Shown one piece after another: positions 3,710-36,393 of a DNA stretch of 64,000 bases. A program made the translations under genes and the position numbers. The notes under the pieces are model-generated. The model saw only the letters and a program-made list of their open reading frames with translations, did not search any database and had not been told where the DNA came from. Source of the DNA: Aestuariivirga sp. (GTDB lineage Bacteria; Pseudomonadota; Alphaproteobacteria; Rhizobiales; Aestuariivirgaceae); NCBI RefSeq assembly GCF_046093005.1, contig NZ_JBJTER010000089.1, forward strand, positions 9,816-73,815. Reading direction: 5' to 3'. The first letter of the stretch is position 1; each line of letters opens with the position of its first letter.

Positions 3710-3842
3710 GATTCCGCCCCATGATGTCTCTGACACGACTCATCGCTGAGGAGCCGGCCTGTTGCAAGCCTGCTGCGCGCCCGCGCGCTGTCCTTGCGCG
3801 AAAGGCATTTTCGTGGTGATTTCCCTTACGAAAGGGCGTGGC

Positions 3843-13228: not shown

Positions 13229-13846
13229 TCAGAACTCGACCCCCGCCTGCGCCTTGACGCCGTCGCGGAACGGATGCTTCACCTGTTCCATCTCGGTGAC
13301 GAGATCGGCGATCTCGATCAGCTCGTCCTTGGCGTTGCGTCCGGTGACGATCACATGCTTGTCCGCGGGCTTGTCGCGCAACACCTCCAGCACCTCGCCG
13401 AGCGGCAGATAGTCATAGCGCAGCACGATGTTGAGTTCATCGAGCAGCACCATGCGGCAGGCGGGATCGGCGATCATGCGCCTGGCTTCCTCCCAGGCGG
13501 CGCGGGCATGCGCGATGTCGCGTTCACGGTCCTGGGTTTCCCAGGTGAAGCCCTCGCCCATTGCTTTCACCGTTACCAGATCGGGGAACTTCTCCAGCAC
13601 CGTGCGCTCGCCGGTGGCCCAGGCGCCTTTCACGAACTGCACGACACCGCAGCGCATGCCATGGCCGATGGCCCGGAAAATCATGCCGAAGGCGGCGGTG
13701 GATTTCCCCTTGCCCTTGCCGGTGTGAACGATCAGCAGGCCTTTCTCGATGGTCTTGCCGGCCATGATCTTGTCGCGCACGGCCTTCTTCTTCACCATCT
13801 TCTCGTGGTGGCGGGCATTGTCATGGCCCGGCTTTTCCTCGGTCAT
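13229..13846 (-). CDS. cobO: Cob(I)yrinic acid a,c-diamide adenosyltransferase
   Basis: HTGKGKGKSTAAFG, QFVKG, GEGFTWETQ, LDELN, TGRNA, QAGVEF. Confidence 0.96.
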   Translation of the reverse strand: MTEEKPGHDNARHHEKMVKKKAVRDKIMAGKTIEKGLLIVHTGKGKGKSTAAFGMIFRAIGHGMRCGVVQFVKGAWATGERTVLEKFPDLVTVKAMGEGFTWETQDRERDIAHARAAWEEARRMIADPACRMVLLDELNIVLRYDYLPLGEVLEVLRDKPADKHVIVTGRNAKDELIEIADLVTEMEQVKHPFRDGVKAQAGVEF

Positions 13847-16800
13847 TTGGTAAGCTCCTCCAGCACATCATGCGCGGAATTAAGCCGCGGCGTCCATAGC
13901 CCGCGGGCGGCGGCCTCCGCCAGGCGCTGGGCAATCTCCTTGAGCGCCGCCGGATTGTTGTCCGCGATGAAGCGGCGGGTGCCGGCATCGGCGATGAAGG
14001 CGTCATAGGCGAGATCGAAATGATGCGAGCGCACCGCGCCGGTTGTCGCCGCGAAAGCAAACATGTAGTCCACCGTGGCGGCGATCTCGAAGGCCCCCTT
14101 GTAGCCGTGGCGCTTCACGCCATCGATCCATTTGGGATTGACCACGCGGGACCGCATCACCCGGCTCACCTCCTCCTCGAGCGTGCGGATCACCGGGCGC
14201 TCGGGCCGCGAATGATCATTATGGTAGACGCGCGGGCGGGTGCCGGATGCCTGTTCCACCGCCGCCGTCATGCCGCCCTCGAACTGATAGTAGTCATCCG
14301 AATCGAGCAGATCGTGTTCGCGGTTATCCTGGTTGTGGACCACCGCCTCGATCCGCTTGAGGCGCGAGAGGAAGGCGTCTTCGTCGCGCACGCCTTGTGC
14401 GCCCGCGCCATAGGCATAGGCGCCCCAGGTGACATAGGCGGCGGCGAGATCGGCGCGGCTAGTCCATATCTTCTCATCGATCAGCGCCTGCAGGCCAGCT
14501 CCATAGGCGCCCGGTCTGGATCCGAAGATGCGATGGCCGGCCATCCGCCGGGCCTCGGCGTCGCCGATCCCCGCCCTTGCCAGTGCGCGCGCTTCCGCCG
14601 CCATGCGCTGAGCCAGCGGGTTGTCGTCTTCATCCTCCTCGAGCGCTCCCACCGCGCGGATCGCCTTGTCGAGGAGTTCGATCTGGGCGGGGAAGGCGTC
14701 GCGGAAGAAGCCGGAGATGCGCAAGGTCACATCGACGCGCGGCCGCCCCAGCCTGGCGAGCGGCAGGATCTCGAAGCCGGTCACCCGCCAGCTCGCTGTG
14801 TCCCACACCGGTTTGGCGCCGATCAGGGCGAGCGCCTGGGCAATGTCGTCGCCGCCGGTGCGCATGTTGGAGGTGCCCCAGGCGGAAAGCCCCAGCGCCT
14901 TGGGATAGCGCCCGAAATCCTGGAGATGGCGGAGCAGCAGCTCCTCGGCGGATTTGCGCCCGAGCGTCCAGGCGGCGGGCGTGGGCAGGGTGCGGTTGTC
15001 AAGCGAATAGAAGTTCCGCCCGGTCGGCAGCACGTCGAGACGGCCCCGGGTGGGGGCACCCGATGGCCCCGGCCGCACGAAACGCCCCGCAAGACCTCCC
15101 AGAAGTGCGGCGATTTCACATGGTCCCGAAGCGCGCAGCAGCGGCCGCACATGGCTGTCGATGCGGGCGAGCACCCTGGCGGTTGCGTTCATGCCGGGCG
15201 GCAAGGCGAGGCCCTCCAGCAAAGCCGCCGCATAAAGCTCAAGCCGCTCCACGGTATCGCCGTTGCTGCGCCAGGCTTCGGCCGAGATGTCAGCCAGTGC
15301 CAGTGGACGCGGGCCTGCCCAGGCCGCGGCGGGCGCGCAGCTCAGGGGGTCGAAGCCGGTCAATCCGAAATCGATCGTCAGCGCCCGGGTGAGCGATTGA
15401 TCGCCGTCTTCGCCAAGCCCGCGCGGCACGCGGGTGAGCGCCACGAGAAGATCGGTTTCGAGCCGGCCTTGCGGTGCGGCTCCCAGCACGTGAAGCCCAT
15501 CGCGGATTTGTGCTTCCTTGAGATCGCAGAGAAACGCATCAAGCCGCTGCAAATCCTGCTCTTCGTCACCGGTGAACCCAGCGTCCGCATCAAGCCTTGT
15601 TGAAGCGGTGAGCGCCAGGATATCGCGGCGCAGTGCCGCGCGCCGCCGCGGGTCGAGGCCGGACGCGAGGTAGTACTCGTCAACGAGGGCTTCGAGATCC
15701 TTGAGCGGGCCATAGGTCTCGGCGCGCGTGAGCGGCGGCGTCAGATGGCTGATGATCACCGCCGCGGTGCGCCGCTTGGCCTGGGTGCCTTCGCCCGGAT
15801 CATTGATGATGAACGGGTAAAGCTGCGGCACCGGCCCGAGAATGGCTTCCGGCAGGCAGTCCGCCGAAAGCGCGGTCGCCTTGCCCGGCAGCCATTCGAG
15901 ATTGCCATGCTTGCCATTGTGGATCACCGCATGGGCGCCGAACACGTGCCGCACCCAGATGTAGAAGGCGAGATAGCCATGCGGCGGCGGCAGGGCAGGG
16001 TCATGGTAGCTGGATTTGGGATCGATGTTGTAGCCGCGCGCCGGCTGGATCGCCACCGCGGCATTGCCATGGCGGATCACCGGCAGGCGGAAGCCGCCGC
16101 CGGCGAAGAACGGGTCATCAGCGGGATCGCCCCAGCGGCCAGTGATCCGTTCACGGACGGTCTCCGGCAATGCCGCGAAATGCCGGAGGTAATCGGCCAG
16201 CGAAAGCGTTTCTCCATTCACGCAAGCCGTCTTTGGCGCGGCGTTGGTCGGGCCCCGCTGCAGGGCGGCGATCAAGGCGTTGCCGGTCTCGGGGATGTTG
16301 GTGATCGCATAGCCTTCACCGAGCAGGGCGGCGAGGATCGCCACCGTGCTGGCCGGCGTGTCATAGCCCACGCCATTGGCGATGCGGCCATCCTTGTTGG
16401 GATAGTTGGCGAGGATCACCGCCACTTTCCGCCCTTGCGGCGGCGTGCGCCGGAGCCTGATCCAGCTGGCCGCGAGATCGGCCACGAAGGCCACGCGGTC
16501 CTCAACCGGGCGGTAGGTGAGGATCGGGCACTCCGTCCCGGCGTGCCACTGGTCCTCCGCCTTGAAGGAGATGGCGCGTGACAGAATTCTGCCGTCCAGT
16601 TCCGGCAGCACCACATTCATCGCGAGGTCGCGGGCCTCGAGGCCTTGCGGGCTGGCGCGCCACCGGGCTTCGGAGCTTCCCGCCAGCACCACTTGCAGCA
16701 CCGGGCAATCATAGGCCGCCAGCGGATCGTCGGCGCCGCCCGCCGCCACCGCGAAACTGGTGGCATTCAGGATGATGTCCGGCGGCCGCCCGGAAAGCCC

Positions 16801-17511
16801 GCCACCGATTGCCGCAATACTCGCCGCGTCCTTGAGGCTGGCGACATAGAAAGCGCGTGTTGCAATGCCGCGCGCGGCAAGCTCATCGATCAGCGCGTCG
16901 ATGGGGGCTGTCTGGCCGCCGTCGATCGCCGAGCGGTAGAAGATGATCGCCGCCAGCGGCTGGCCCGCCGCGCCGGTTTCGCGGTAGAGCCCGGCGGGGG
17001 CGGGGGGGATGGCGGGTGCCGGCTCTTCACCCCGCTCCGTCAGATGCCTGCAATAGGCAAGAAAGCCATCGGCGTTGGCGGCGCCGCCGGCCACCAGATA
17101 CTGCCGCAGCCGCTCGCAGTGATGGGCGGGCAGGCTTGAGCGGCGCGTGAGGTCCGGGTCCGGCTGGGCATCTCCCGGCAGGACCGCCAGCAGGATTCCC
17201 CTGGTCTCGGCCAGCGCCTCCAGTTGTTCCAGCCCATAGCTCCAGTAGGACGCGCCACCCAGCAGCCGCAGCACGATCAGCCTGGCATGCGCCAGCGTCT
17301 TCCCGGCGTAAACATCGACCGACAGCGGATGCTGCAGCCGCAACAGGCTGGCGAGGCGCAGGGAACAGGGGTTCCGGTCATGGGCGCGGGCGAGGCTTGC
17401 GAGTTCGCTGTCGGCGGCCGACAGCACGATGATATCGGCCGGCCGCTGCGCGAGGTCGACGGCCTCGGCACTGCCGTCGATCACACCGCTGGTTGAGGCG
17501 AGGAGGTGCAT
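13843..17511 (-). CDS. cobN: Cobaltochelatase large subunit
   Basis: MHLLA start, GKHGNLEWLPGK, NDPGEGTQAKRR, PTGRNFY, NPKWIDGVKRHGYKGA. Confidence 0.96.
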   Translation of the reverse strand: MHLLASTSGVIDGSAEAVDLAQRPADIIVLSAADSELASLARAHDRNPCSLRLASLLRLQHPLSVDVYAGKTLAHARLIVLRLLGGASYWSYGLEQLEALAETRGILLAVLPGDAQPDPDLTRRSSLPAHHCERLRQYLVAGGAANADGFLAYCRHLTERGEEPAPAIPPAPAGLYRETGAAGQPLAAIIFYRSAIDGGQTAPIDALIDELAARGIATRAFYVASLKDAASIAAIGGGLSGRPPDIILNATSFAVAAGGADDPLAAYDCPVLQVVLAGSSEARWRASPQGLEARDLAMNVVLPELDGRILSRAISFKAEDQWHAGTECPILTYRPVEDRVAFVADLAASWIRLRRTPPQGRKVAVILANYPNKDGRIANGVGYDTPASTVAILAALLGEGYAITNIPETGNALIAALQRGPTNAAPKTACVNGETLSLADYLRHFAALPETVRERITGRWGDPADDPFFAGGGFRLPVIRHGNAAVAIQPARGYNIDPKSSYHDPALPPPHGYLAFYIWVRHVFGAHAVIHNGKHGNLEWLPGKATALSADCLPEAILGPVPQLYPFIINDPGEGTQAKRRTAAVIISHLTPPLTRAETYGPLKDLEALVDEYYLASGLDPRRRAALRRDILALTASTRLDADAGFTGDEEQDLQRLDAFLCDLKEAQIRDGLHVLGAAPQGRLETDLLVALTRVPRGLGEDGDQSLTRALTIDFGLTGFDPLSCAPAAAWAGPRPLALADISAEAWRSNGDTVERLELYAAALLEGLALPPGMNATARVLARIDSHVRPLLRASGPCEIAALLGGLAGRFVRPGPSGAPTRGRLDVLPTGRNFYSLDNRTLPTPAAWTLGRKSAEELLLRHLQDFGRYPKALGLSAWGTSNMRTGGDDIAQALALIGAKPVWDTASWRVTGFEILPLARLGRPRVDVTLRISGFFRDAFPAQIELLDKAIRAVGALEEDEDDNPLAQRMAAEARALARAGIGDAEARRMAGHRIFGSRPGAYGAGLQALIDEKIWTSRADLAAAYVTWGAYAYGAGAQGVRDEDAFLSRLKRIEAVVHNQDNREHDLLDSDDYYQFEGGMTAAVEQASGTRPRVYHNDHSRPERPVIRTLEEEVSRVMRSRVVNPKWIDGVKRHGYKGAFEIAATVDYMFAFAATTGAVRSHHFDLAYDAFIADAGTRRFIADNNPAALKEIAQRLAEAAARGLWTPRLNSAHDVLEELTK

Positions 17512-18542
17512 CAGCCTCGCAGCAGCTGGGTGATGGCGGCGCGGTCCATGTGCTTCTCGCCGATCACCACGAGGGCCGTGCCGCGCGGCTCGTCCTGGCG
17601 CCATGGCCGGTCGAAATAGCTGTCGAGCCGCGGGCCCACCGCCTGCACCAGCAGCCGCGCCGGCGCGCCCGCGATTTCGGCGAAGCCCTTGAGGCGCAGG
17701 ACGCCGTGGCTGGCGATGGCGTTTCCGATGCGGTTCAGCAGCGCTGCCTTATCGCCTTGCGGGCCGAGCGCCACCACGAAGCTCACGAAATCATCATGGT
17801 CATGCTGTTCCTCGCCTTCCATCTCATGGTGCGAGAGGCGGTTCGCCATATCGTCTTCCGCCGCCGCCCCGGCGCCCAGCAGTGCTGCCACGCTCACCGC
17901 GCCGTGCCGCGCGGCGATCATCCCGGTGCCCGCCCGCAGCTTCTGCTTCAGCGCGGCGGTAACGGCGTCCTGTTCGCCGGCCGCGAGAAGGTCGGTCTTG
18001 TTGACGATCACCAGGTCAGCGCAATTGAGCTGATCCTCGAACAGTTCCTCGATCGGGTTTTCATGGTCGAGCGTCGGGTCGGCCAGGCGCTGTGCCGCCA
18101 GCGCTTCTTCATCATCCGCGAAACGGCCCTCGGCCAGCGCCTTGGCATCGACAACGGTGATCACCCCATCGACGGTGACGCGCGGCTTGATCTCCGGCCA
18201 GTTGAAGGCCCGCACCAGAGGCTGGGGCAGGGCGAGGCCGGAGGTTTCGATCACGATGTGCTGCGGCGGGTCCGGCCGGTCGATCAGCTTCTTCATGGTC
18301 GGAATGAAATCATCGGCCACGGTGCAGCAGATGCAGCCATTGGCGAGTTCGATCACATCCTCCTCGCGGCAGGCTTCGGCGCCGCAGCCCTTCAGGATTT
18401 CGCCATCGACCCCGACATCGCCGAACTCGTTGACGATGAGAGCGATGCGCCGCCCGCCGGCATTGGCCAGCAGGTTGCGGATCAGCGTGGTCTTGCCGGC
18501 GCCGAGGAAGCCGGTGATGACGGTGGCGGGAATCTTCTGCAT
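17511..18542 (-). CDS. cobW: Cobalamin biosynthesis GTPase CobW
   Basis: MQKIPATVITGFLGAGKTT, NGCICCTVADDF, ETSGLALP. Confidence 0.94.
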   Translation of the reverse strand: MQKIPATVITGFLGAGKTTLIRNLLANAGGRRIALIVNEFGDVGVDGEILKGCGAEACREEDVIELANGCICCTVADDFIPTMKKLIDRPDPPQHIVIETSGLALPQPLVRAFNWPEIKPRVTVDGVITVVDAKALAEGRFADDEEALAAQRLADPTLDHENPIEELFEDQLNCADLVIVNKTDLLAAGEQDAVTAALKQKLRAGTGMIAARHGAVSVAALLGAGAAAEDDMANRLSHHEMEGEEQHDHDDFVSFVVALGPQGDKAALLNRIGNAIASHGVLRLKGFAEIAGAPARLLVQAVGPRLDSYFDRPWRQDEPRGTALVVIGEKHMDRAAITQLLRG

Positions 18543-18544
18543 GG

Positions 18545-19237
18545 TCAGCTTTCGTAAATGTCCCTGGCGGTGAGCGTGAGGGCCACGGCGAGGAACTGGC
18601 CGATCAGCAGCCAGAACACCGCATTGGCGGCGATGGTGTTGGCGGCGAAGCGCGCCGCGAGTTCGGCCGGCACCGTGCTTTCGGCATGGATGCCCGATGG
18701 CGCGCCCAGCGCATGCGGAAGGGCGATCAGTGCCAGCGCCAGCGCCACGGCCCAGGCCTGGCGGCGGCTCACGAGCAGAAAGATGCCTGCCGCCGTCAGG
18801 GCCACGGTGCTCACCCACCATAGCTGCTGCAGCCAAAGATCGCCCGCCGCCATGCCAGGAAGCACCGGAGGGAGGCCGGCTGCCGGGGCAATGGTGACGG
18901 CCAGAAATCCGCACAGGCCCCAGACCATGCCGTTCCGCCGGGTGATGGCGATGCCGGACAGCAGCGAAATTCCCGCCAGCACGGCGGCAAAGGCGGCGCC
19001 GGTCATGACGGTGGTGAGGGTGGTTGCGAGGCTTCGCTGCCAGCCATCGGCGGGGCGCCAGCCGTCATGCTCATGCGCCCCGCCGTTGCCATGGTCATGC
19101 GTGGCCACGGATTGCCGCGCCTCGAAGCCTTCGGCTTTAAGGATGAGGGGCGTCAGCCGCACATGCAGGATGGCACCCATGATAAGCCCGGCCGCCATCC
19201 CCGCAAGGAGTGCGGCGAGCACCACGCGCCCGATCAT
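18545..19237 (-). CDS. cbtA: Cobalt transporter subunit CbtA
   Basis: TM helices, His-rich loop (HDHGNGGAHEHD), GLPPVLPG, PHALGAP; lies downstream of cbtB. Confidence 0.85.
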   Translation of the reverse strand: MIGRVVLAALLAGMAAGLIMGAILHVRLTPLILKAEGFEARQSVATHDHGNGGAHEHDGWRPADGWQRSLATTLTTVMTGAAFAAVLAGISLLSGIAITRRNGMVWGLCGFLAVTIAPAAGLPPVLPGMAAGDLWLQQLWWVSTVALTAAGIFLLVSRRQAWAVALALALIALPHALGAPSGIHAESTVPAELAARFAANTIAANAVFWLLIGQFLAVALTLTARDIYES

Positions 19238-21868: not shown

Positions 21869-22285
21869 ATGCCGCTTAATCTGTTGAAGCTCTGCGTCGG
21901 CGTCAGCGACGTCGAGGAACTGGAAAACTGGGTCAAGGACTGCCGCAAGGGCCGCGACACGCTGGATCATGTCACCCGCATGTTCCCCAAGCGCCGCGAT
22001 GAAATCCTGCCGGGCGGTTCGCTGTACTGGGTGATCCGCGGCATGATCCTCTGCCGTCAGCCGATCGCCGCGCTGGAGCCGGTGACCGGCGGTGACGGTA
22101 TCGAGCGCTGCCGCATCGTTTTCAAACCGCAGATCGTGCCCGTGCGGGCCACGCCCAAGCGCGCATTCCAGGGGTGGCGCTATCTCGAGGAAGCAGATAC
22201 GCCTCCGGATCTGCCGAAATCGGCGCGGGTGGAGGGCATGCCGGTCCAGATGCGCCGCGACCTGGCTGACCTGGGTCTGCTGTAG
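21869..22285 (+). CDS. DUF1489-family protein
   Basis: LNLLKLCVG, GGSLYWVIRG, RAFQGWRYL, LADLGLL. Confidence 0.8.
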   Translation: MPLNLLKLCVGVSDVEELENWVKDCRKGRDTLDHVTRMFPKRRDEILPGGSLYWVIRGMILCRQPIAALEPVTGGDGIERCRIVFKPQIVPVRATPKRAFQGWRYLEEADTPPDLPKSARVEGMPVQMRRDLADLGLL

Positions 22286-22434
22286 CGCCGCTCCATCTCA
22301 GGCGCTTTCACTCAACGCCGAACCATCGGCGCCGGTGCGGCGGCACTCAGGCGCAAGGCGGCGTCTGGCATGTCTGGAAAACTGGCAGCGCCATCGTCAC
22401 CCGACCGGCGCCGCCTTCAAGCCCGCAGGCCGTC

Positions 22435-23022
22435 CTACCAGCGCATCGGACGGAAGGACTTCAGCGTCGGCATGCCGATCATCGAGGACAGGGGCGCGGC
22501 ATTCTTGCTGAGCAGCCCCATGCCGATGAGGGAGGAGAGCGGCGCGGCATTCTCACTCAGCAGCGGCATGCCGATAACCCTGGAGGCGCTCCAATCGGCT
22601 GACGTCAGCGGTGAGAACCCGATGATCTTGGAGATGGGCGTGGCATCATCGGACAGCAAGGGCATCATCAGCGCGCTTGATAGCGGCGCGGCTTCATCCC
22701 ACAGGGTTTCCGGCGCGGGCTCCGGCATGCCGGTTGGGATGGGGTGGTGGGAGTCGAGAATCTGTTCCGCCGCCAGTCCTGTGCCGAAAGGCGCGAACAC
22801 CGTCACCAGCGAACCGCCCGCCGCAACGCCCTTGGCGTAAATACGGGCGTCCGCCAGAAGCACCCGGTTCTGGGCGATCTGCGCGGCAATGGCCGAGAGC
22901 GGCGTATCACCGGCGGGCGGAGACACCACATGAACGTCCGTGAAGCCCTCCTCGCGCAGTTCGGCGGCGGCCTTGTGAGCGGAGTCCTGGCTGGAATACA
23001 TCCGGTTGATTTCAGTGGTCAT
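22435..23022 (-). CDS. Putative LH2-associated PucDE/gamma-like protein with ~16-aa repeats
   Basis: Lies immediately after pucC; C-terminal repeats (A-x-PLS-x2-IGM-x-LLS). Resemblance to R. capsulatus PucDE is from memory only. Confidence 0.5.
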   Translation of the reverse strand: MTTEINRMYSSQDSAHKAAAELREEGFTDVHVVSPPAGDTPLSAIAAQIAQNRVLLADARIYAKGVAAGGSLVTVFAPFGTGLAAEQILDSHHPIPTGMPEPAPETLWDEAAPLSSALMMPLLSDDATPISKIIGFSPLTSADWSASRVIGMPLLSENAAPLSSLIGMGLLSKNAAPLSSMIGMPTLKSFRPMRW

Positions 23023-23056
23023 TGCGGTGTCCTCTCGCTATTGGTTCGGTGTTCGT

Positions 23057-24457
23057 TCATCGGGCGTCTGCGGTGCGGCGGTTTGTGGCGTCCGGGCTGC
23101 GCGCAAGGTGGTAAGCAATTACGATTGTTGCCATTAGCAGGATCACCTCCAGCCCATAGACCGAAAGATAGGGCAACACTGTTCCCCCGCCGCCAATGGC
23201 CGCGACGCTGTCACGGAGGATCGCGCCCAGCGCAATCCCGCATCCCGCGGCGGTGGCCTGCACTGCGCCCCATGCGCCAAGCGCCAGGCCACGCTGGTCT
23301 TCGGGCGCATGGTTCATGGTGGCGGTGAGCGTGCCGTGCCCGAACAGCCCGCCGCCAAAGCCAATGAGCAGCGTGCCGGCGCCGAACAGCAAGGGTGAGG
23401 CCAATGGCGCCGCCGCGATGATCATCAGGAACGCCGGCACCCCAACCATCGCGCCGCATGCGGCCATGCGGAACGCATCGAAGCCGCGGCTCAGCACATA
23501 GGAGGCAAGGCTGAAGCCCAGGAGGCCGCCGCCCGCGAGTGCGGCCGTCAGCACCGTGGTGCGCGACACGGTAAGGCCGAGGACCTGGCCGCCATAGGGC
23601 TCCAGCATCACATCCTGCATGCTGAAGGCGAGTGTGCCGAGGCCTACCGCCACCAGCCGGGCCATCGCCTTGTCGCCGGCGATGAAGCAGGCCCAGGCCT
23701 CCCGGAAACTGGGGTCGGGGGCGGCTCCTGGCCGCCGCCTGGCGCCGCCGCGCGCCTCCTGCTTCCAAACCGCGATACCGGTGAGCAGCAAGGTGGCCAC
23801 GCCCGCGCCCTGGATCACCTGAACCAGCCGCCCATGCGAGAAATTGGCGAGCAAGGCTCCGAAAATCAGTGCACTGATGATTGAGCCCGCCAGCAGAGAG
23901 ACATACATGAGCCCGACCACATTGGGCTGTTTTTCCGGGGGCGTGAGGTCTGTCGCCAGTGCGAGCCCGGCAGTCTGGCTGATGTGCAGTCCGGCTCCAA
24001 CGAGCAGGAAGGCAAGCGCCGCCGCCGCCTGGCCCACCCAGGCGGGAACTTCAGCGGCATGGCCCTGGCGGGCAAGCACCAGCAGCGCGAAAGGCATGAT
24101 GGCGAGGCCGCCGAACTGCAGCATCGCGCCCTTGTAGATGAATGGAACGCGCTTCCAGCCCAGTTCGGACTGGTGGGTGTCGGATTTGAAGCCGATGAGC
24201 GCCCGGAATGGCGCGAAAACCAGTGGCATGGCCAGCATCACGGCCACCAGCGAGGCCGGAACGTGCAGCTCAACGATCATCACCCGGTTCAGCGTGCCCA
24301 CCAGCAGCGCCAGTGTCATTCCGGCGGAGACCTGGAACAGCGAAAGCCGCAGCAGCCGCTCGATCGGCACATCGGCCGTCGCGGCGTCCGCGAAGGGAAG
24401 ATATTTCGCGCCGAGCCCGATCCAGGCCCGCATCACGCTCTGGCTGAGACGGTTCAT
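23057..24457 (-). CDS. pucC: PucC/LhaA-family MFS light-harvesting assembly protein
   Basis: YLPFADAAT, LLRLSLFQVS, GTLNRVMIVEL, LEPYGG, GAWGAVQATAAG; follows pucBA. Confidence 0.9.
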   Translation of the reverse strand: MNRLSQSVMRAWIGLGAKYLPFADAATADVPIERLLRLSLFQVSAGMTLALLVGTLNRVMIVELHVPASLVAVMLAMPLVFAPFRALIGFKSDTHQSELGWKRVPFIYKGAMLQFGGLAIMPFALLVLARQGHAAEVPAWVGQAAAALAFLLVGAGLHISQTAGLALATDLTPPEKQPNVVGLMYVSLLAGSIISALIFGALLANFSHGRLVQVIQGAGVATLLLTGIAVWKQEARGGARRRPGAAPDPSFREAWACFIAGDKAMARLVAVGLGTLAFSMQDVMLEPYGGQVLGLTVSRTTVLTAALAGGGLLGFSLASYVLSRGFDAFRMAACGAMVGVPAFLMIIAAAPLASPLLFGAGTLLIGFGGGLFGHGTLTATMNHAPEDQRGLALGAWGAVQATAAGCGIALGAILRDSVAAIGGGGTVLPYLSVYGLEVILLMATIVIAYHLARSPDATNRRTADAR

Positions 24458-24498
24458 GCCCCGTATCCGGCGGTTAATGCTGCAACCGGTGTCGGAAT

Positions 24499-24607
24499 TT
24501 GCGGGAGGTGCGCGGGGCTTGGGTCCCCGCTCACCTCTCGCAATATCGTAGCCATCCCCCTTGCACTGCCGGCGCCGCTTTCGGGGGAAAGGAGGCGCCG
24601 GCGGTGC
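24499..24607 (-). terminator. Two GC-rich stem-loops between pucA and pucC (mRNA stabiliser/attenuator)
   Basis: TTGCGGGAGGTG...CACCTCTCGCAA (24499-24543) and GCACTGCCGGCGCC...GGCGCCGGCGGTGC (24563-24607). Confidence 0.55.
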
Positions 24608-24624
24608 CGGTCAGGAGGGACCAT

Positions 24625-24927
24625 CTATTTTACGGCGATCGCCGTCTCGTCCTCGAGCGAGGCGAGCTTGGCGGCCGCGTCAGGAGCCACTGTCACGGTG
24701 ATGACATAGCCCTGATCGGTCTTGGTCACGTTCGAGGCCAGCGGCGAAACCGTGGTTTCGGCCGAGGCGGCCTGCGCGGCCGCTCCGCCCTCGAAGAACT
24801 TCGACACCCAGGTGCTGTGCGTCATCACTGACGCATGCACCACCAGCGAGGTGACCGCCACGCCGCCGATGAACAGCGGCAGGCCGACGGTGGGGTTAAC
24901 GACGCACCAGATTCTTCCTTGGTTCAT
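24625..24927 (-). CDS. pucA: LH2 alpha polypeptide with long C-terminal extension (100 aa)
   Basis: [17 protein letters not shown], His31 BChl ligand, TW at 39-40. Confidence 0.93.
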
Positions 24928-24939
24928 GTCATTAACCTC

Positions 24940-25095
24940 CTAGTGCAGCCATGGCGAATAAACATACGCCAGCAGGTGTGCGAAGAGGGCGATCACGAAG
25001 AACACGCGCGAGCCGTCGATGACGTGCTTGTGCAGTTCCTCTGATTCCCGGATGGTAAGGCCAGTCGGCCATACCCGGTTGGGATCGTCTGACAT
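24940..25095 (-). CDS. pucB: LH2 beta polypeptide (51 aa; below the ORF-track cutoff)
   Basis: Manual translation: [51 protein letters not shown]; GGAGG RBS upstream. Confidence 0.94.
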
Positions 25096-25205
25096 CTAGC
25101 TTGTACCTCCAGACTTAGACTAGTTCCGTGCTTGACCCGCACGCAGGTTTCTCGTCATTTCATCAACAACAAGACTAGTTTTGGTGCAGAGCACCTTCCT
25201 TCCCC

Positions 25206-26261
25206 TCACGGGTTGGGAACCGATAATTCCGGATACTCCTTTGCCATGCTGAAGCCGTAGAGCGGCTTGTTCACGCCCTGGTGGCAGGTGGCGCAGTTGA
25301 CCTTGAGAACGTCGCCCATCGGCCCCTTGCGGTTGGCGGGGAACACATCGGTGAGCGAGTCCATGTAGGTCTGGTTGACATTGCCCACCATCTGCAGGCC
25401 GTGCCAGGCGGTGACGCGCTGCGGCCGGCTTTCCTTCCAGCTGCTGAAGATCCGCGAGTTGTGGCAGAAGGTGCAGTTGACGCCCAGCCCCGTGGACATG
25501 TGCATCATCAGCGCATAGGTCTTCTCGGTGCTCTGGATCGAGCCGCCGGTGCCGCCCGGAAGCGCCGTGGAGGCGATGACCCGGATGTTGGCGCCGGGCT
25601 GCAGCAGCGTGGTGAACGGATCATAGGGCAGGGAGGCATAGGCGGGAACCTGCATGCCGGCCACATTCTGGCCGTCGCGGCTCGCCGCCATGCCGCCCGC
25701 CTGTTTCGGCCCGGGGTTGATCGCCCAGACATTCGCGGGCACTGGCTTGCCGCGATGGCAGGTGTAGCAGGTGACGCCCGTCGCCTGCACGTGGGTCTGG
25801 TACTTGCTGTTGATGGTCCTCGTCATCTGCAGCATGCGCCGCGCCACGACCTTGGTGTAGACCTCGTCGGACGCCATGTTCTCGACATTGTGGCAATAGG
25901 CGCAGCCGGCATTGTCGCCTTCCTGCGGGGCGACCCAGGTGGTGATGGCGCCCATCAGCCGGTTGAACTGCGCGGTGTCGAGATCGCCCAGCACCTGCAC
26001 ATTCTTGTAGTTTTCAGGATCGTCCTTCACCAGCACGCCGTCGTTCTCCACGGGGTCGTCGGGCACCGGCGCCTTGTTGAGGGCGGCGAGCATTTCGGCG
26101 CGGCGCGGGTTGGTGATCTGCTCCATGCCGAGGCCGCGATAGCCCAGCTGCTCGGAGTGCATCGGCGGGCGCTCCCATTGCAGCATCATGGGGATGGTGA
26201 GCAGGGTCACCACGACGATGCCGAGCAGGGCTGCTGTAAGGGTTGAGGCGGAGAGTTTCAT
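25206..26261 (-). CDS. pufC: Reaction-centre tetraheme cytochrome c subunit
   Basis: Four CxxCH motifs (CAYCH, CYTCH, CTFCH, CATCH); axial Met/His candidates present; WERPP and GYRG motifs. Confidence 0.96.
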   Translation of the reverse strand: MKLSASTLTAALLGIVVVTLLTIPMMLQWERPPMHSEQLGYRGLGMEQITNPRRAEMLAALNKAPVPDDPVENDGVLVKDDPENYKNVQVLGDLDTAQFNRLMGAITTWVAPQEGDNAGCAYCHNVENMASDEVYTKVVARRMLQMTRTINSKYQTHVQATGVTCYTCHRGKPVPANVWAINPGPKQAGGMAASRDGQNVAGMQVPAYASLPYDPFTTLLQPGANIRVIASTALPGGTGGSIQSTEKTYALMMHMSTGLGVNCTFCHNSRIFSSWKESRPQRVTAWHGLQMVGNVNQTYMDSLTDVFPANRKGPMGDVLKVNCATCHQGVNKPLYGFSMAKEYPELSVPNP

Positions 26262-26274
26262 GTGGTCATCCCTC

Positions 26275-27249
26275 CTATTGCGCCACGCCCGTGGGATCGA
26301 GGACCGGCGCCGTCAGGTCGAGCGGATAGACCGGCGCCACGCCATGCTTCACCGCCCACAGATACCAGTTGTCGACCACCGTGCCGGTGAGCAGGATGCC
26401 GATGCCGCCAACCAGCGGGCACAGCACCGCGAACCACCACGCCCAGCGGTGGATCGACTCCATGGTGGCGTTGAAGCCCATGGTCCAGCGCCAGAACAGG
26501 GCGGCGCGCTCCGAGGCCGTGCCGCGGTCGAGGATCTGTTCGATCTCGCGCTCGCCGCCCAGCCGCGACACCGCGAGGATGGTCGCGCCATGCATGGCGA
26601 ACAGCAGCGCCGAGCCGTACAGGAAGGCGATCGAGAGCATGTGGAAAGGGTTGTAGAAGAGGTTGCCGTAGCGGATCGAAAACGCCGCCGTCCAGTCGAG
26701 GTGCGGGAAGATGCCGAACGGGACCGCTTCCGAGAAGTTGCCGAGCAGCAGCGGCCGGAAGAAGCCCAGCACCAGATAGAGCCAGATGGCCGCCGCGAAG
26801 GCCCAGGCGATATGCGTTCCCATGCCCAGCGCGCGGGCGCGCCGGTAGGTGCGCAGCCACCACAGCAGGATCGATGCGGTGAGGAAGAAGCCGGCCATCT
26901 GCCACCAGCCGCCTTCGCGCAGCGGCGCCAGGCCCAGCCCGTATTTGGCCGGCGGCGGCTCGAGGCCCAGCCAGAACAGCTGGCGCACGAATTCGATTGG
27001 GTTCCAGTTCACCGAGGCCAGCATGTTGAGGCCGATGATCTCGATCGCAATGAAACCGCAGAGCAGCGAGGCGATGCCCAGCGCGCCCAGATACACAGGC
27101 CCGATCTGCGCGTCGCCGAAGGTGCCGAGCAGCCAGTTGGTGGTGGTCATGTTCTCGCGTGACCAGTTTCCTGGCTTCATCGGCACGCCCATGTCGGCGG
27201 GGCCGTGCACCTGCACGCGGGTGAAGATATTCTGATATTCGTACATCAT
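26275..27249 (-). CDS. pufM: Type II reaction centre M subunit
   Basis: [57 protein letters not shown]. Confidence 0.98.
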
Positions 27250-27264
27250 GGGAGTCTCCGCGCG

Positions 27265-28089
27265 TCAGGACCAAATCGGCAGGTCGAGCCACCAGTTCCA
27301 CCATTCGGGCCAGCCACGGGTCCAGAATGGGCCGCTGATCACGATGCAGACGGCGCTGAAGAACACCGCGCCCAGCGCCAGCAACAGGCCCAGGCGGTGA
27401 ATGCCGAGCGTGCCGATCGAATAGCCGATGTGATCACGGAAGAAGGCGTTCTCGTGTTCGGCGGTCTTCACCGCCTCGCCCTTCGGCGGGTTGGTGGCCG
27501 ACAGCACCAGGCCGCCATGCATGGCGAGCGCCAGCGTCGTCGTGAAGAACAGCGTGATGGCGATCATATGCGCCGGATTGTAGTGGAAATGCAGATATTG
27601 GTAGCCCACGTTGGACACCCAATCGAGATGGCTGATGATGCCATAGGGGAAGGCATGACCCCAGGCGCCGAGCAGCACCGGGCGCACGATCTCGAGGGTC
27701 ACATAGGCGAGGATGGCGAAGGAGAAGGCGACCGGCACGTGAAGGCCGATGCCGAGCTTGCGGCAGATTTCCACCTCGCGCAGCGCCCAGCTCACGAAGG
27801 CGCCGGTGGCGCACACGGTGATGATCTGCCAGAGCCCGCCCTCCTTGAGCGGCGCCAGCGCCAGGCCATAGCTCAGGTCGGGCGGCGCGATGTTGATCTG
27901 CCAGAGGTTCCAGGTCGGCCCGATGGCCGCGGAATAGACGATCAGGGCGGTGCCCAGGATCGAGAAGAAGGCGGTGGTGACGCCGAAGAAGCCCACATAG
28001 AAGGGCCCCACCCAGAAATCGAACAGATCGCCGCCGAACAGCGTTCCGCCGCGTACGCGATATTTCTTTTCGAAACTGAGCATTGACAT
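27265..28089 (-). CDS. pufL: Type II reaction centre L subunit
   Basis: [36 protein letters not shown]. Confidence 0.98.
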
Positions 28090-28142
28090 TTCGGTCACTC
28101 CTCCGGCCCTGGAAGCCGGCCTTATTTCTCGAATTTCAGTTC

Positions 28143-28178
28143 GTGGACGGAACGGGGTGGAGGCCGCGTTCCGTCCAC
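28143..28178 (-). terminator. pufA-pufL intercistronic stem-loop
   Basis: Perfect 12-bp stem GTGGACGGAACG/CGTTCCGTCCAC at the position known to stabilise pufBA mRNA in Rhodobacter. Confidence 0.7.
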
Positions 28179-28201
28179 AGGGGGGTGCGGGATGACCGGC
28201 G

Positions 28202-28384
28202 TCAGCCGATCATCTCGCTGACTGTCACATCCAGGCTCGCAGCCTTCTTCACGCCGCCTTCCAGCCAGTTGAACCGGTCGGTGGACAGAAGAATGAAGTG
28301 GATGATGAGTGCCAGCACGAACAGGAAGGTAGCCATCGCCACCAGGGTCCTGCGGGGATCGAAAAGAAGCCACATGCGCCACAT
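28202..28384 (-). CDS. pufA: LH1 alpha polypeptide
   Basis: [28 protein letters not shown]. Confidence 0.97.
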
Positions 28385-28396
28385 GATCGATCCTCC

Positions 28397-28615
28397 TTAT
28401 GTGAACATCGACGTGAGCTGGTGCAGGACCGGCGTCAGGTCGGTGCTCTCATAGCCGTTGGGTCCGGGAATCCACGGGCGCCATTGCCAGGCAAGGAAGT
28501 GGGCGACGATCGCCACCAACGTGAAGGCAATGAAGCTCGAAACGAAGATTCCATGGAACTCCTTGGCTTCGGCTTCGGACAGGCCAGAGATGCCTGACCC
28601 TCTGTTATCGGCCAT
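28397..28615 (-). CDS. pufB: LH1 beta polypeptide
   Basis: [23 protein letters not shown]. Confidence 0.97.
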
Positions 28616-28756
28616 TTTACTGACCTCCGTCTGAGGCCCCGTGAAGGGCCCTGTTACCGCTGAAATCCCGCGCGGACCGGGTGCCTCGGGCCGGTGGAGA
28701 GCCCTTGGCGATCCGCCGTCACCCGCAAGGGTGCCGGCGAATGGCTGGCCCTGCGC

Positions 28757-28972
28757 CTACATGAAGGCGAAGGGGATCGAGTTGTGCGTCGCGGCCTTGG
28801 CGGCGGCGAAGATGGACTTGCCATCCTCATGGCCGGCCATGCGCGGCCGCGCGGCCCGCGGGATCAGCCGCGAGAGCGCGATGGCCACGAAGAACACCGC
28901 GAAGGCCAGCCACATCAGCAGGCTGAACTCGAGCTTCCCCTCGGCGTGGCGTGAGGCGTTGATCATTGACAT
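28757..28972 (-). CDS. pufQ: PufQ-like small membrane protein
   Basis: 71 aa, one TM helix after EF, C-terminal SIFAAAKAA...PFAF; sits between bchZ and pufB. Confidence 0.7.
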   Translation of the reverse strand: MSMINASRHAEGKLEFSLLMWLAFAVFFVAIALSRLIPRAARPRMAGHEDGKSIFAAAKAATHNSIPFAFM

Positions 28973-29024
28973 GCTGTAATCCTCCCGATGTCAGTGACGA
29001 GTGAACTGGAACGGAGCTGGCGCA

Positions 29025-30467
29025 TCAGGCGAGCTCCGCGATGGCTGAAAGCACGTCGGCTTCCGCGACGGTTTCGGATTGCGCCTTGCGGGCGCGGGCC
29101 TCGGCGCCGTCGCGAAGCCGCTTGGCGGCGGATATCCGCACCAGCACCGGCTGGCGTTCCACGAGTTCGTCAAGCGCCGCCTTGGCGGCCGCGTCCCAGA
29201 TCAATTCATGCTCGCGCCGCGCCGGTGTTGCTTCCACCTTGTCCATGTCGGTGGCGAGCGGCAGGATGTTGAACAGCGCGTCGAACAGCGCGTTGCACAC
29301 TTCCTGGATCAGATAGGTGGCGCCGGCATAGCCCATGAACGGCGTGCCGGTATGGCGGCGGATGATGGCGCCGGGGACGGAGGCGGGGAGATAGATGCCG
29401 CGCCCGCCCGCTTCCGTGAGCTACATGCGCTCGTTGTAGCTGCCGAACAGGATGAGCGGCGCCTTCTCGCGAACCAGCTTGCGCACCGCCTCGTTGTCGG
29501 TCTTGGCGCCCGCCTTGCGGGTCACCGCGAACTGGCAGGGCAGGCCCATCTCCTCGCCCAGGAAATGCTCGAGCCCGCGGGCATAGGTTTCGCTCGCCAC
29601 CACGGCGAAGCTGGCGGTGGCGAAGAAATCCTGGGTCACCGAGCGCCACAGGTCCCACAGCGGCTTGATGGTGGTGTGCTTTTCCCGGGCGATGAACGGC
29701 TCGGGATCGAGCCCGAGGGTTTCACCCAGCGCGCGCAGGAACTTGGTGGTCGAGTGCAGCCCGATCGGCGCCTGCAGATAGGGCCGGTCGAGGGTCTCGC
29801 ACAGCTTGCGGCCATATTCGCGGTACATGCACACATTGGCTTCCGCATTGGCGAGCTTCGGCACATCCGCGAGGTGCGATCCCAGCGGGAAGCACATGTT
29901 GACCTCAGCGCCGATGCCTTCGACCAGGCGGCGGATCTCCGCCAGGTCAGACCAGGTGTTGAAGGTGCCGTAGATGGGGCCGATGATATTGACGCGCGGC
30001 TTGTCGCCGGGCGCCCGCGGCTTGGCGGTCGGAACCTGCTTCTTCTTGGTTCCGAATTCCGTCCACAGCCAGTTCATGGCGCGGTCAGCGCTCTGCCACT
30101 GGTCTTCGTCGATGGTGCGCGGCAGGAAGCGCTGGATGCCGGTGCCCTGCGGCGTCACCCCGCCGCCGATCATCTCGGCGATCGAGCCGGTCACCACCAC
30201 GCTCGGCATGGCCGGATCGAGGGTCTTGTGGGCGCGGCGCATGGCGCCTTCGGTGCCGTGCTGGCCGAGTTCCTCCTCGGAAAGCCCGGTCACCACGATC
30301 GGCAGCTCATGCGGCGGCAGCGCGTCGGTGTAATGCAGCACCGATGTCACGGGAAGATTTTCGCAGCCCACCGGCCCGTCGATGATCACCTGCAATCCCT
30401 TGATCGCGGTGAACACATAGACAGCGCCCCAATAGCCGCCGGCGCGGTCGTGATCTAGCACCAGCAT
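29025..30467 (-). pseudogene. bchZ: Chlorophyllide a reductase subunit Z interrupted by an in-frame TAG at 29421-29423 (real lesion or sequencing error)
   Basis: [14 protein letters not shown]...[43 protein letters not shown]... The two ORF-track fragments are in one frame, 87 nt apart. Confidence 0.92.
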
Positions 30468-34057: not shown

Positions 34058-34101
34058 TGTAAGCTTACTCTTACACATCAAAGTGTCAATAGGAGTGTAC
34101 A
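34058..34101. promoter_or_regulatory. Tandem PpsR/CrtJ palindromes at the bchC promoter
   Basis: TGTAAGCTTACTCTTACA (34058-75) and TGTCAATAGGAGTGTACA (34084-101); both are TGT-N12-ACA and 8 bp apart. Confidence 0.9.
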
Positions 34102-36314: not shown

Positions 36315-36357
36315 TGTCAACTCATAATGTCATTGCGACTGTCAGGAATTATTGACA
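36315..36357. promoter_or_regulatory. PpsR palindromes at the crtE/crtD divergent promoter
   Basis: TGTCAGGAATTATTGACA (36340-57, perfect) and TGTCAACTCATAATGTCA (36315-32, one mismatch). Confidence 0.8.
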
Positions 36358-36393
36358 TACTTGTCCAAACTCCGCAACAGGGAACCGAAATCG

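Follow-up and report, generated by a model that had tools for sequence, protein, structure and literature searches.

The arrangement of light-harvesting genes at this locus raises the question of whether LH2 can be expressed as a continuation of the puf transcription unit. In Rhodobacter, pucBAC(DE) is transcribed from its own PpsR/CrtJ-repressed promoter, and a stable ~0.5 kb pucBA mRNA is derived from a longer transcript. The siting of the puc operon outside the photosynthesis gene cluster is the textbook arrangement (PMC11659472, PMC12654162). In the window, a 64,000-nucleotide stretch of a contig from Aestuariivirga sp., the puc genes are instead attached to pufC, and ten genes form a single series, all on the minus strand:

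28757-28972, minus strand: pufQ-like ORF, 71 aa, first gene of the puf unit (assigned by position and architecture)
28397-28615, minus strand: pufB, LH1 beta (Pfam LHC, 3.5e-11)
28202-28384, minus strand: pufA, LH1 alpha (Pfam LHC, 4.3e-17)
27265-28098, minus strand: pufL (Pfam Photo_RC, 5e-97)
26275-27249, minus strand: pufM (Pfam Photo_RC, 2e-110)
25206-26261, minus strand: pufC, tetrahaem reaction-centre cytochrome (Pfam CytoC_RC, 6e-131)
24940-25095, minus strand: pucB, LH2 beta, 51 aa (Pfam LHC)
24625-24927, minus strand: pucA, LH2 alpha, 100 aa, with a ~45-aa C-terminal extension (Pfam LHC)
23057-24457, minus strand: pucC, LH2 assembly factor of the MFS type (Pfam PUCC, PF03209, 5.4e-145)
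22435-23022, minus strand: orf195, a 195-aa protein accompanying puc operons (ORF call)

The pufQ-like ORF encodes a basic N-terminus followed by a single hydrophobic helix, and its homologues occupy the equivalent place 5' of pufB in related loci; it gave no Pfam match, even at E<=1. The nearest homologues of PufC include proteins named from Aestuariivirga sp. The top PDB matches of PucB and PucA were the LH2 beta chain of Rps. palustris (7ZE3_B, 7.7e-27) and LH2 alpha chains (7ZE3_A, 1.9e-18, with only residues 1-55 aligned), respectively, and LH1 chains in the PDB scored far below LH2 chains; judged from these alignments, both products are genuine LH2 polypeptides, nearer to LH2 than to LH1. 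pucC lies directly 3' of pucBA, as expected of an LH2 (puc) operon. The "(DE)" that the initial annotation had placed after pucC could not be upheld: neither pucD nor pucE is recognisable from the sequence, which holds one 195-aa ORF rather than two genes. Searches of Pfam, NCBIfam and the PDB with orf195 returned zero matches, and among its 563 homologues all source-named ones are called "hypothetical" except one evident mislabel. Homologues adjoin pucBAC in L003, L005, L006, L008, L010, L012, L019, L075, L161, L163, L164 and L166, and by homology orf195 belongs to a conserved family without a name that neighbours pucBAC in several lineages. Its AlphaFold2 model predicts a ferredoxin-like N-terminal domain and a disordered tail with APLSSxxGhPxL repeats, and Foldseek gave no match to the model below E 0.03. 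Downstream of orf195, at positions below 22435, come cobalamin genes and the genes for DUF1489, an Mrr-type nuclease and a TPR-SPOR protein. The other end of the photosynthesis cluster, which is a partial one, is bchI at 47317, and puc occupies its margin rather than its interior, contrary to the first description. One likely base error was noted in bchZ of the window.

Between the pufC stop codon (25206-25208) and the pucB ATG (25095) there are exactly 110 bp, the distance given initially. The signals in and around this gap are as follows:

25096-25205, minus strand: pufC-pucB junction, the 110-bp puc leader (from the sequence)
34058-34101: tandem TGT-N12-ACA sites 5' of bchC, the PpsR-type sites lying closest upstream of puf-puc
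36340-36379: tandem TGT-N12-ACA sites between crtE and crtD, heading the crtEF-bchCXYZ-puf-puc same-strand run
28142-28179, minus strand: pufA-pufL hairpin with a 13-bp stem and no T tail (segment fold -46.9 kcal/mol, z -2.4)
24495-24627, minus strand: two strong hairpins between pucA and pucC (fold -78 kcal/mol, z -6.3)
22376-22415, minus strand: terminator-like hairpin GGCGGCGCC...GGCGCUGCC, then AGUUUUCC, 3' of orf195 (sequence and fold)

Zero TGT-N12-ACA sites were found within 22435-28972 (11 were observed in the whole window vs 3.6 expected), and a terminator scan returned zero terminator-like sites in the minus-strand intergenic spaces of the same region, junction included. The hairpin at 22376-22415 is absent from the output of that scan because its T-run fell under the threshold. 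A consensus scan detected no sigma-70-like site in the pufC-pucB gap. The early description of a gap devoid of a T-tailed terminator and of TGT-N12-ACA was borne out by the two scans, and folding recovered the stem-loops described after pufA and pucA, two of them in the latter case. The puf and puc genes are same-strand contiguous genes without a terminator at the operon junction.

Of the 15 Aestuariivirga-type loci that could be evaluated, 14 have the pufC-pucB order, and among the remaining pufC loci it occurs in 2 of 122; the order is a genus-level trait. The initial annotation had called for a survey of this adjacency, with a common order in related taxa counting against its proposal; the 14/15 result lowers the uniqueness of the window but leaves co-transcription unrefuted. 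The same survey bears on the reading that the junction is an assembly artefact, in which two contigs of a metagenome-assembled genome, one with puf and one with puc, were joined into a chimera. In favour of it, the window probably derives from an uncultured freshwater genome and carries the likely bchZ error, but the same junction is repeated on 14 independent contigs that differ in sample and assembler, one of them a complete long-read chromosome (L003), and public metagenomes contain up to 96% of the words of 24400-26400. The artefact reading is refuted by these independent contigs, and its probability is practically nil.

Loci with a short pufC-pucB gap differ from others in what follows pufC. 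Over the 110 nt that follow the pufC stop, the median for the best hairpin was -15.2 kcal/mol in 12 short-gap loci vs -25.4 kcal/mol in 133 other pufC loci (Mann-Whitney p = 1e-6), and where puc is not directly behind pufC, a strong hairpin (L001, L002) or a canonical terminator (L019) follows pufC. One or two TGT-N12-ACA sites lie within ~300 nt 5' of independent or long-gap puc operons (L002, L006, L008, L012, L019, L072, L161, L163, L164 and L166), vs 0/12 short-gap loci with such a site upstream of pucB; in the congener L002, a classical tandem-PpsR promoter is inserted into the pufC-pucB gap. Independent puc-orf195 operons occur in Roseiarcus fermentans (L161), in Rhizobiales, Steroidobacteraceae and Piscinibacter MAGs (L006, L008, L012, L072) and in a Myxococcota MAG (L166). 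Like the window, they encode closely related PucB, many carry the HP2 leader motif described below, and most have an orf195 homologue, with none in the fetched flank of L072. Unlike the window, they are solitary, convergent to pufC or distant from it, with TGT-N12-ACA sites and TTGACA-type promoters upstream. A 2025 review names Limnohabitans as the notable exception in that its LH2 genes lie within the photosynthesis gene cluster (PMC12654162). Its puc would, as in the window, be physically linked to the cluster, but Limnohabitans belongs to the Betaproteobacteria, a different class from the host of the window, and in the single locus fetched (L054) puc was absent within 10 kb downstream of pufC. 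We know of no claim that puc is co-transcribed with puf in Limnohabitans.

Loci of the short-gap type have, in place of TGT-N12-ACA sites, a leader whose structure of two hairpins, HP1 and HP2, is conserved; in the window a small additional hairpin precedes it:

25183-25195, minus strand: HP0, GGUGC-UCU-GCACC, just 3' of the pufC stop in the variable spacer (from folding)
25150-25174, minus strand: HP1, UCUUGUUGUU-GAUGA-AAUGACGAGA (from alignments)
25127-25143, minus strand: HP2, invariant inverted repeat CGUGC-GGGUCAA-GCACG, 32-48 nt 5' of the pucB ATG

HP0 is restricted to the window, L081 and L082. For HP1, 95% of the cells in the alignment are paired vs 30-55% in slid controls, and both sides have changed in 4 pairs. 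The strict HP2 motif, CGTGCNGGTNNNGCACG, occurs in 21 sense copies just 5' of pucB and 1 copy elsewhere (3.7 Mb, both strands counted), and it is present in loci of Alpha-, Beta- and Gammaproteobacteria. Upstream of HP1, the last part of pufC shows free variation at synonymous sites among the aligned loci, and the 17-40 nt 3' of the pufC stop are variable in both sequence and length; there is therefore no conserved promoter upstream of HP1.

RNA spanning the pufC-pucB junction was found in the congener L084 only, in which the junction is 93 nt long. Contigs of 708 and 713 nt cross pufC, the gap and pucB (2028-2736 and 2024-2736) in two runs, at a low depth matching that of pufC. According to one reading, puf transcription stops at pufC, puc is separate, and such bridges represent DNA carry-over or joined overlapping ends. 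RNA runs can contain DNA, and DNA carry-over in these libraries is formally possible, but 40-fold depth steps argue against it; the depth of the locus ranges from 0 to several hundred, unlike DNA, and the bridges, obtained in two independent runs, have the depth of pufC rather than a uniform background. In one run, a sequencing adapter is joined after 2598, which places an RNA 3' end 1 nt beyond the pufC stop, in keeping with separate units, but both a terminator and a strong hairpin are absent after pufC, and the 33 nt between this end and the fixed 5' end described below are too small for a terminator plus a promoter. With the lack of a bridging contig in the window strain (see below) also counted in its favour, a locus without functional coupling is considered very unlikely.

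Abundant pucBA RNA of L084 (depth 69-380, compared with about 6 or less for pufC and pucC) has a fixed 5' end. Runs X42, X45 and X46 (depth 49-151) have adapter joined at C2632, which lies in the 3' arm of HP1, and contigs start at 2628 and 2635 in two further runs; at the other side, adapter is joined after 3253, behind the pucA hairpins and ~20 nt 5' of pucC. The counterpart of the fixed end in HP1 of the window is C25154. Either RNA processing or transcription initiation could give rise to such an end. In the latter case, an independent puc promoter of a non-PpsR type (weak-consensus or activator-dependent) would overlap the leader and start at ~25150-25154, and read-through would be minor. 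The end is sharp and reproducible with a 15-40-fold depth step in L084, but its base is C, which is unusual for initiation. A -10-like TGAAAT lies 3-6 nt upstream of it in most congeners, but the adapter-joined end is just 3 nt past this hexamer, too close for a start, and L005 and L091 have lost TGAAAT, the sole -10-like hexamer, while keeping HP1 through compensatory changes. In L084, CTGACA-N17-TGAAAT would predict a start at ~2636, near the contig start at 2635, but the -35 position, which is part of the variable spacer, is unconserved, and no consensus site was detected in the gap. A dedicated promoter would be the simplest account of the high abundance of pucBA, but it does not explain why pufC-containing RNA ends at 2598 in L084 with no hairpin able to terminate there. 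Based on these observations, an independent promoter is regarded as rather unlikely, and we infer that the 5' end in HP1 probably arises by cleavage rather than by initiation of transcription.

For L084 and the window strain alike, RNA data were assembled metatranscriptome contigs, not reads, so that depth is a flat mean and sequence common to several strains is collapsed. On this scale, pufBA RNA of the window strain had a contig depth of 16-39 and pucBA RNA 5-28, compared with below 2 to 2.6 for pufC and ~2 or less for pucC; over the two strains, pufC and pucC RNA were 10 to 40 times below pufBA and pucBA, and the abundant segments had hairpin limits. The pucBA contigs of the window strain stop at the foot of the second pucA hairpin (3' ends at 24493 and 24495), and the pucA-pucC double hairpin is the 3' limit of the abundant RNA. 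Their upstream ends are scattered over 25182-25205, as expected of a low-level precursor, and none enters pufC. A contig bridging pufC and pucB of the exact window strain was found in none of 12 lake runs; this weighs little because the pufA-pufL junction, which is certainly co-transcribed, was likewise unbridged. An abundant short pucBA segment between hairpins with sparse flanks is the puf-type pattern of segmental mRNA decay. The proposal of one superoperon with ratios set by mRNA decay, made in the initial annotation, predicts such discrete, abundant pufBA and pucBA segments with 10 to 40 times lower pufC and pucC; it gains from these and from the L084 bridges. The hard-wired LH2:RC ratio that the initial annotation drew from it is not supported: the fixed 5' end of the abundant pucBA RNA is compatible with both cleavage and a start, and the gap of L002 has acquired a classical tandem-PpsR promoter.

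Taken together, this locus is probably expressed by read-through from puf into puc, with subsequent processing into RNA segments of unequal stability, and the following scheme was considered. The puc genes would form the distal end of the puf transcription unit, in that RNA polymerase coming from pufQBALMC, and probably also from crtEF-bchCXYZ, would not be stopped after pufC and would continue into pucBAC-orf195, the first terminator-like element that it meets being the one behind orf195. The read-through precursor would be cut within HP1, at the equivalent of C25154 in the window. The pufLMC part, which has no protective 3' hairpin, would then decay, and a ~0.65-kb pucBA segment with HP2 at its 5' side and the pucA double hairpin at its 3' side would reach an abundance 10-40 times that of pufC and pucC. 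From the cut in HP1 and the stability of pucBA relative to the decaying pufLMC part, the level of LH2 polypeptide mRNA would therefore be governed mainly by post-transcriptional processing and stability, and not by a PpsR-controlled promoter of its own. Read-through may supply most of the pucBA RNA in the window strain. Against read-through alone stands the level of pucBA, which is about half that of pufBA and more than 10 times that of pufC; on this reading the pucBA segment must be very stable.

Among the nearest comparable systems are two from Rhodobacter. Work by Bauer, Beatty, Belasco and Klug reportedly established superoperons of the form crtEF-bchCXYZ-pufQBALMX and segmental decay of puf mRNA in Rhodobacter capsulatus and R. 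sphaeroides. The window resembles these in having crtE, crtF, bchC, bchX, bchY, bchZ and puf on one strand, tandem TGT-N12-ACA sites at crtE and bchC, a post-pufA hairpin without a T tail, and pufBA RNA far above that of the distal puf genes. In contrast, its unit would continue past the last puf gene, which is pufC and not pufX, into pucBAC-orf195, and a second stable segment, pucBA, would be released from its 3' part. With the Rhodobacter puc operon, the window shares the pucB-pucA-pucC order, hairpins 3' of pucA, genuine LH2 polypeptides and a short pucBA RNA whose abundance far exceeds that of pucC RNA. It differs in lacking PpsR sites and space for a classical promoter, in having an unrelated-looking 195-aa protein as the product of the fourth gene instead of pucD/pucE, and in an abundant RNA that begins ~59 nt before the ATG, within a conserved hairpin.

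A further step is put forward tentatively, namely that LH1, the reaction centre and LH2 are encoded in one unit, from which the PpsR promoter of puc has been lost, with the HP1 cleavage site and the HP2 module making a stable LH2 message. In this single unit, the class-spanning HP2 element (CGUGC-RGGUNNN-GCACG) would act as a putative 5' stabiliser or regulator-binding site. If this is correct, Aestuariivirga would be the first organism described in which LH1, the reaction centre and LH2 come from one transcription unit, and antenna quantity would be adjusted post-transcriptionally, not through repression of transcription by redox or light.

The puf and puc genes of the window follow one another on the minus strand in the order listed here.

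28757-28972, minus strand, pufQ-like ORF, assigned by position only (no Pfam match even at E ≤ 1)
28397-28615, minus strand, pufB
28202-28384, minus strand, pufA
27265-28098, minus strand, pufL
26275-27249, minus strand, pufM
25206-26261, minus strand, pufC
25096-25205, gap between pufC and pucB
24940-25095, minus strand, pucB
24625-24927, minus strand, pucA
23057-24457, minus strand, pucC
22435-23022, minus strand, orf195, an ORF of 195 aa behind pucC

The initial annotation had described pucB as starting 110 bp past pufC on the same strand, with neither a T-tailed terminator nor a TGT-N12-ACA site in between and with stem-loops behind pufA and pucA. This description was confirmed by the gene order, the site and terminator scans and the hairpin folds: the gap is exactly 110 bp, both scans of it were empty, a 13-bp hairpin lies 3' of pufA, and pucA is followed by two very stable hairpins (z -6.3). 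A consensus scan found no terminators in the minus-strand intergenic spaces, and a sigma-70 consensus scan of the relevant intergenic spaces returned nothing. No TGT-N12-ACA site lies within 22435-28972; 11 were observed in the whole window against 3.6 expected, including tandem pairs before bchC (34058 and 34084) and between crtE and crtD (36340 and 36362). The best solved-structure matches of PucB and PucA are Rhodopseudomonas palustris LH2 chains, with LH1 chains far lower, and judged by sequence both are true LH2 polypeptides. PucA (100 aa) possesses a C-terminal extension of about 45 residues rich in Ala, Thr and Val, which is also present in congeners (PucA of 93-107 aa), and has KFFEGG in place of the Tyr-Trp or Tyr-Tyr of B800-850 alpha chains; given the known effect of these residues, the LH2 is presumably blue-shifted (B800-820-like). 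Elsewhere on the same strand, an in-frame TAG at 29421-29423 splits bchZ between GSYNERM and LTE. This position is an invariant Tyr codon (TAY) in more than 100 related loci and reads TAT in public metagenome contigs of near-identical strains; rather than marking a genuine pseudogene, the TAG is most likely due to an assembly base error or to a rare nonsense allele.

The puc genes had also been placed inside the photosynthesis gene cluster, which did not hold: puc is its last element, and non-photosynthesis genes lie beyond orf195, namely a DUF1489 gene, an Mrr-type nuclease and a TPR-SPOR protein, then cbtA, cobW, cobN and cobO. On the other side, photosynthesis genes end at bchI (47317), followed by hisN, adenine deaminase and transporters. 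The gene content of both flanks shows that the cluster contained in the window is partial (bchIDO-crt-bchCXYZ-puf-puc); about half of the usual photosynthesis gene cluster is present, with bchFNBHLM, puh and ppsR absent from the window. The cobalamin cluster (cobO, cobN, cobW, cbtA; 13229-19237) and the last photosynthesis gene are separated by about 3 kb, and a B12-dependent ribonucleotide reductase is encoded on the opposite side (54119-57799).

According to the textbooks, the LH2 genes are found outside the photosynthesis gene cluster and have a PpsR-controlled promoter of their own, so that purple bacteria can adjust the size of the antenna without changing the core complex. In contrast to the known puc operon, that of Aestuariivirga has no PpsR promoter of its own, is attached to pufC and has a different fourth gene. 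The survey of pufC-pucB adjacency suggested by the initial annotation covered 160 pufC loci from species-representative genomes and metagenomes, on each of which the puf and puc genes were mapped. The PufC of the window is 76-97% identical to freshwater metagenome proteins and to those of Aestuariivirga sp. MAGs (order Hyphomicrobiales); the taxonomic assignment is based on such protein similarity to named MAGs. A same-strand pucB after pufC was found at 14 of the 15 evaluable Aestuariivirga-type loci and at 2/122 other loci (L019, a Labrys MAG, and L075, a Gammaproteobacteria MAG); thus, the order is a genus trait that is rare elsewhere. A misassembled junction is excluded by 14 independent contigs. 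Gap sizes in the genus are 93-110 bp at 12 loci, 247 bp at two and 642 bp at L002. The sole exception among the 15 is L001, an Aestuariivirga MAG (PufC 82% identical) with no puc behind pufC, in which a strong hairpin and a convergent gene follow pufC (2851-3997); hence, in at least one lineage of the genus, LH2 is either missing or encoded elsewhere. A tblastn search of a plasmid collection with PucB returned only Sulfitobacter pufB and no puc locus. No published description of pufC-pucB adjacency or co-transcription was found, and according to a 2025 review, aerobic phototrophs have their LH2 genes outside the cluster, the notable exception being Limnohabitans (PMC12654162).

In the independent puc operons (L006, L008, L012, L072, L161, L163, L164 and L166), the 300 nt or so that precede pucB contain one or two TGT-N12-ACA sites, which often overlap TTGACA-type promoters. 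Upstream sites are also carried by the long-gap loci L002 and L019, the latter with a canonical terminator behind pufC. At the 12 Aestuariivirga-type loci with gaps of 93-110 bp (short-gap loci), no such site was found upstream of pucB (0/12), and the strongest hairpin in the 110 nt that follow pufC has a median of -15.2 kcal/mol versus -25.4 kcal/mol at other pufC loci (p = 1e-6). These comparisons indicate that the usual end of a puf operon and the usual start of a puc operon are both missing at the junction, which has a conserved structured RNA leader instead. The genus is not uniform, as is seen from L002, whose gap (11054-11695) contains an inserted promoter of the classical tandem-PpsR type: two TGT-N12-ACA sites 8 bp apart overlap a TTGACA-N17-TAGCTT promoter, with the same leader downstream, and L002 is a natural "uncoupled" variant of use as a comparison.

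In the short-gap alignment, synonymous sites show free variation over the final 20 codons of pufC, the 17-40 nt past the pufC stop are variable in sequence and length, and conservation then starts abruptly with TCTTGTTGTTGATGAAATGACGAGAAACCTGCGTGCrGGTmmAGCACG. A promoter hidden within the 3'-terminal part of pufC, with AATTAT (25228-25223, rare TTA codon) and AGTATC (25237-25232) as candidates, was rejected as a general explanation, since the synonymous sites there vary freely among congeners. The conserved block contains two hairpins.

25174-25150, minus strand, HP1, first part of the block
25143-25127, minus strand, HP2, second part of the block, invariant

In HP1, 95% of cells pair versus 30-55% in slid controls, four pairs are altered on both sides, and the hairpin is rebuilt in L005 and L091 as CCCGCCACC-GAAGA-GGCGGCGGG. 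The HP2 motif, CGTGCNGGTNNNGCACG, has 21 sense copies just upstream of pucB and one copy elsewhere in 3.7 Mb searched on both strands. It occurs as CGUGC-RGGUNNN-GCACG at the same position in the window, L002-L008, L019, L072 and L081-L091, and also precedes independent puc operons in Alpha-, Beta- and Gammaproteobacteria. Since stem and loop are both invariant in sequence, HP2 would be more than a mere hairpin, and a protein or a small RNA may bind there. An Rfam search of 22000-29500 at a permissive threshold returned nothing, no Rfam family covers HP2, and no published study of the motif was found. A direct repeat, AACUAGUCU, brackets the leader (25172-25180 and 25117-25125, minus strand); its AGUCU core is kept at both places in congeners, with the second copy right before the Shine-Dalgarno sequence. 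The Gammaproteobacteria locus L075 (11113-14503; see also L166) likewise shows the order pufC-pucBAC-orf195. The gap measures about 87 nt there, the HP2 motif is absent, and pucB is directly preceded by a hairpin plus a run of five T. PucB of this locus closely resembles that of Aestuariivirga, whereas PufC is only about 58% identical, a pattern suggesting that the puc module was horizontally transferred.

Every RNA result comes from contig assemblies, in which depth is averaged flat over each contig and sequence common to strains is collapsed. Bridging and end mapping refer to the congener locus L084 (PufC 85% identical, 93-nt gap, same leader), which has good coverage in riverine metatranscriptomes, and not to the window strain, for which near-identical contigs from lake metatranscriptomes were used. 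At L084, single contigs of 708 and 713 nt from two runs extend from pufC across the gap into pucB with no mismatch. Depths are 3-6 for pufC, 0-6 for pucC and 69 to several hundred for pucBA, and the bridging contigs average 20 and 31, as would result from combining about 600 nt of pufC depth with 100 nt of pucBA depth. These contigs show that read-through from pufC into puc exists in L084, at about the level of the pufC RNA itself; that puf and puc are not coupled at all is very improbable. The proposal of one superoperon in the initial annotation thus stands as to read-through at the congener locus, and no bridge was seen in the window strain.

The sequencing adapter is fused directly to C2632, in the 3' arm of HP1, in three other L084 runs (depth 49-151), contigs start at 2635 and 2628 in two further runs, and in one run the adapter joins the RNA after 3253, past the pucA hairpins and some 20 nt short of pucC. 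The abundant pucBA RNA is thereby shown to have a fixed 5' end in HP1, corresponding to window base C25154, and a fixed 3' end behind the pucA hairpins. Such a 5' end could arise from a promoter at HP1, and L084 has a passable CTGACA-N17-TGAAAT arrangement with a predicted start near 2636; read-through as the only supply would, moreover, need a very stable pucBA segment. However, the adapter-fused base is a C just 3 nt past the only -10-like hexamer, the -35 position falls within the non-conserved spacer, two congeners have lost the hexamer and kept the hairpin by compensatory changes, and the pufC RNA ends 33 nt upstream without any terminator, so that transcription starting at HP1 is rather unlikely. 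The pufC end was seen in one run, where a pufC contig is joined to the adapter after 2598, the first base beyond the stop. In one riverine run the pucBA RNA starts at 2632, 34 nt on from the pufC RNA end at 2598, and the 33 nt between the two ends (spacer, HP1 5' arm and loop) are missing from the contigs, which looks like excision of the top of HP1.

A puf-puc superoperon that is read through and then processed is probable, if by no means certain. In this mechanism, polymerase would not be stopped after pufC, and the precursor would be cut within HP1. The pufLMC part, having no 3' hairpin, would then decay, and the pucBA part could accumulate under the protection of HP2 and the 3' hairpins. 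In the window strain, depth is 5-28 for pucBA, 16-39 for pufBA and about 2 for pucC, and pufC is unassembled (below 2) or reaches 2.6 in one run. The pucBA contigs end upstream at 25182, 25183, 25188 (three runs), 25203 and 25205, never within pufC, and downstream at 24493 and 24495, at the base of the second hairpin 3' of pucA. No contig of the lake runs bridges pufC and pucB; this was rejected as evidence against read-through because pufA-pufL, which is certainly co-transcribed, is equally unbridged. A transcription start at the pufC stop codon, considered from the upstream ends, was dropped after the L084 data since the abundant species there begins further downstream, in HP1; the scattered ends at 25182-25205 fit a low-level precursor.

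The gene behind pucC had been labeled "(DE)"; it encodes a single protein that is unrecognizable by sequence as pucD or pucE and has no match in Pfam, NCBIfam or PDB. Its first 100 residues are predicted with high confidence to form a ferredoxin-like domain, and the remainder is predicted to be disordered, with APLSSxxGhPxL-type repeats (3-10 per tail in the family). Foldseek returned nothing below E 0.03, only generic ferredoxin-like folds (NDK, CutA1, PII) at E ≥ 0.04. Homologues adjoin pucBAC in many lineages, among them Roseiarcus fermentans, a Steroidobacteraceae MAG, a Gammaproteobacteria MAG and a Myxococcota MAG. The type strain of A. litoralis also has an orf195 homologue. In addition to the window ORF, the family has members at these loci of the comparison.

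L161, 5068-5823
L163, 5183-5923
L164, 3459-4142
L166, 3447-4136

The family thus stands beside pucBAC in Alpha- and Gammaproteobacteria and in one Myxococcota MAG, so orf195 is a conserved, unnamed companion of the puc operon and a candidate LH2 assembly or regulatory factor; no published study of it was found.

Compared with the generally known Rhodobacter-type superoperon crtEF-bchCXYZ-puf, the Aestuariivirga locus adds one more operon and reuses the principle of hairpin-bounded stable segments familiar from Rhodobacter puf. Under the superoperon reading, LH2 transcription would be tied to puf and, via the same-strand run, to the PpsR sites of bchC and crtE. The LH2:RC ratio proposed to be hard-wired would, however, be set at steady state by cleavage and stability, both of which could be regulated. 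The genus appears to have given up independent antenna control at the level of transcription, and read-through with RNA processing and stability seems to replace it. In a freshwater lake, Aestuariivirga is reported as a stable core member of the aerobic anoxygenic phototroph communities (PMC10976687). Transcript counts of pufM in lake metatranscriptomes would underestimate the expression of photosystem genes when compared with pucBA or pufBA. For specialists in photosynthesis gene regulation and freshwater aerobic phototrophs, the locus, if confirmed, would draw attention to the widely conserved HP2 motif of puc leaders and to the unnamed puc-linked family, and would provide a natural system for the study of how antenna-to-core stoichiometry can be set purely post-transcriptionally.
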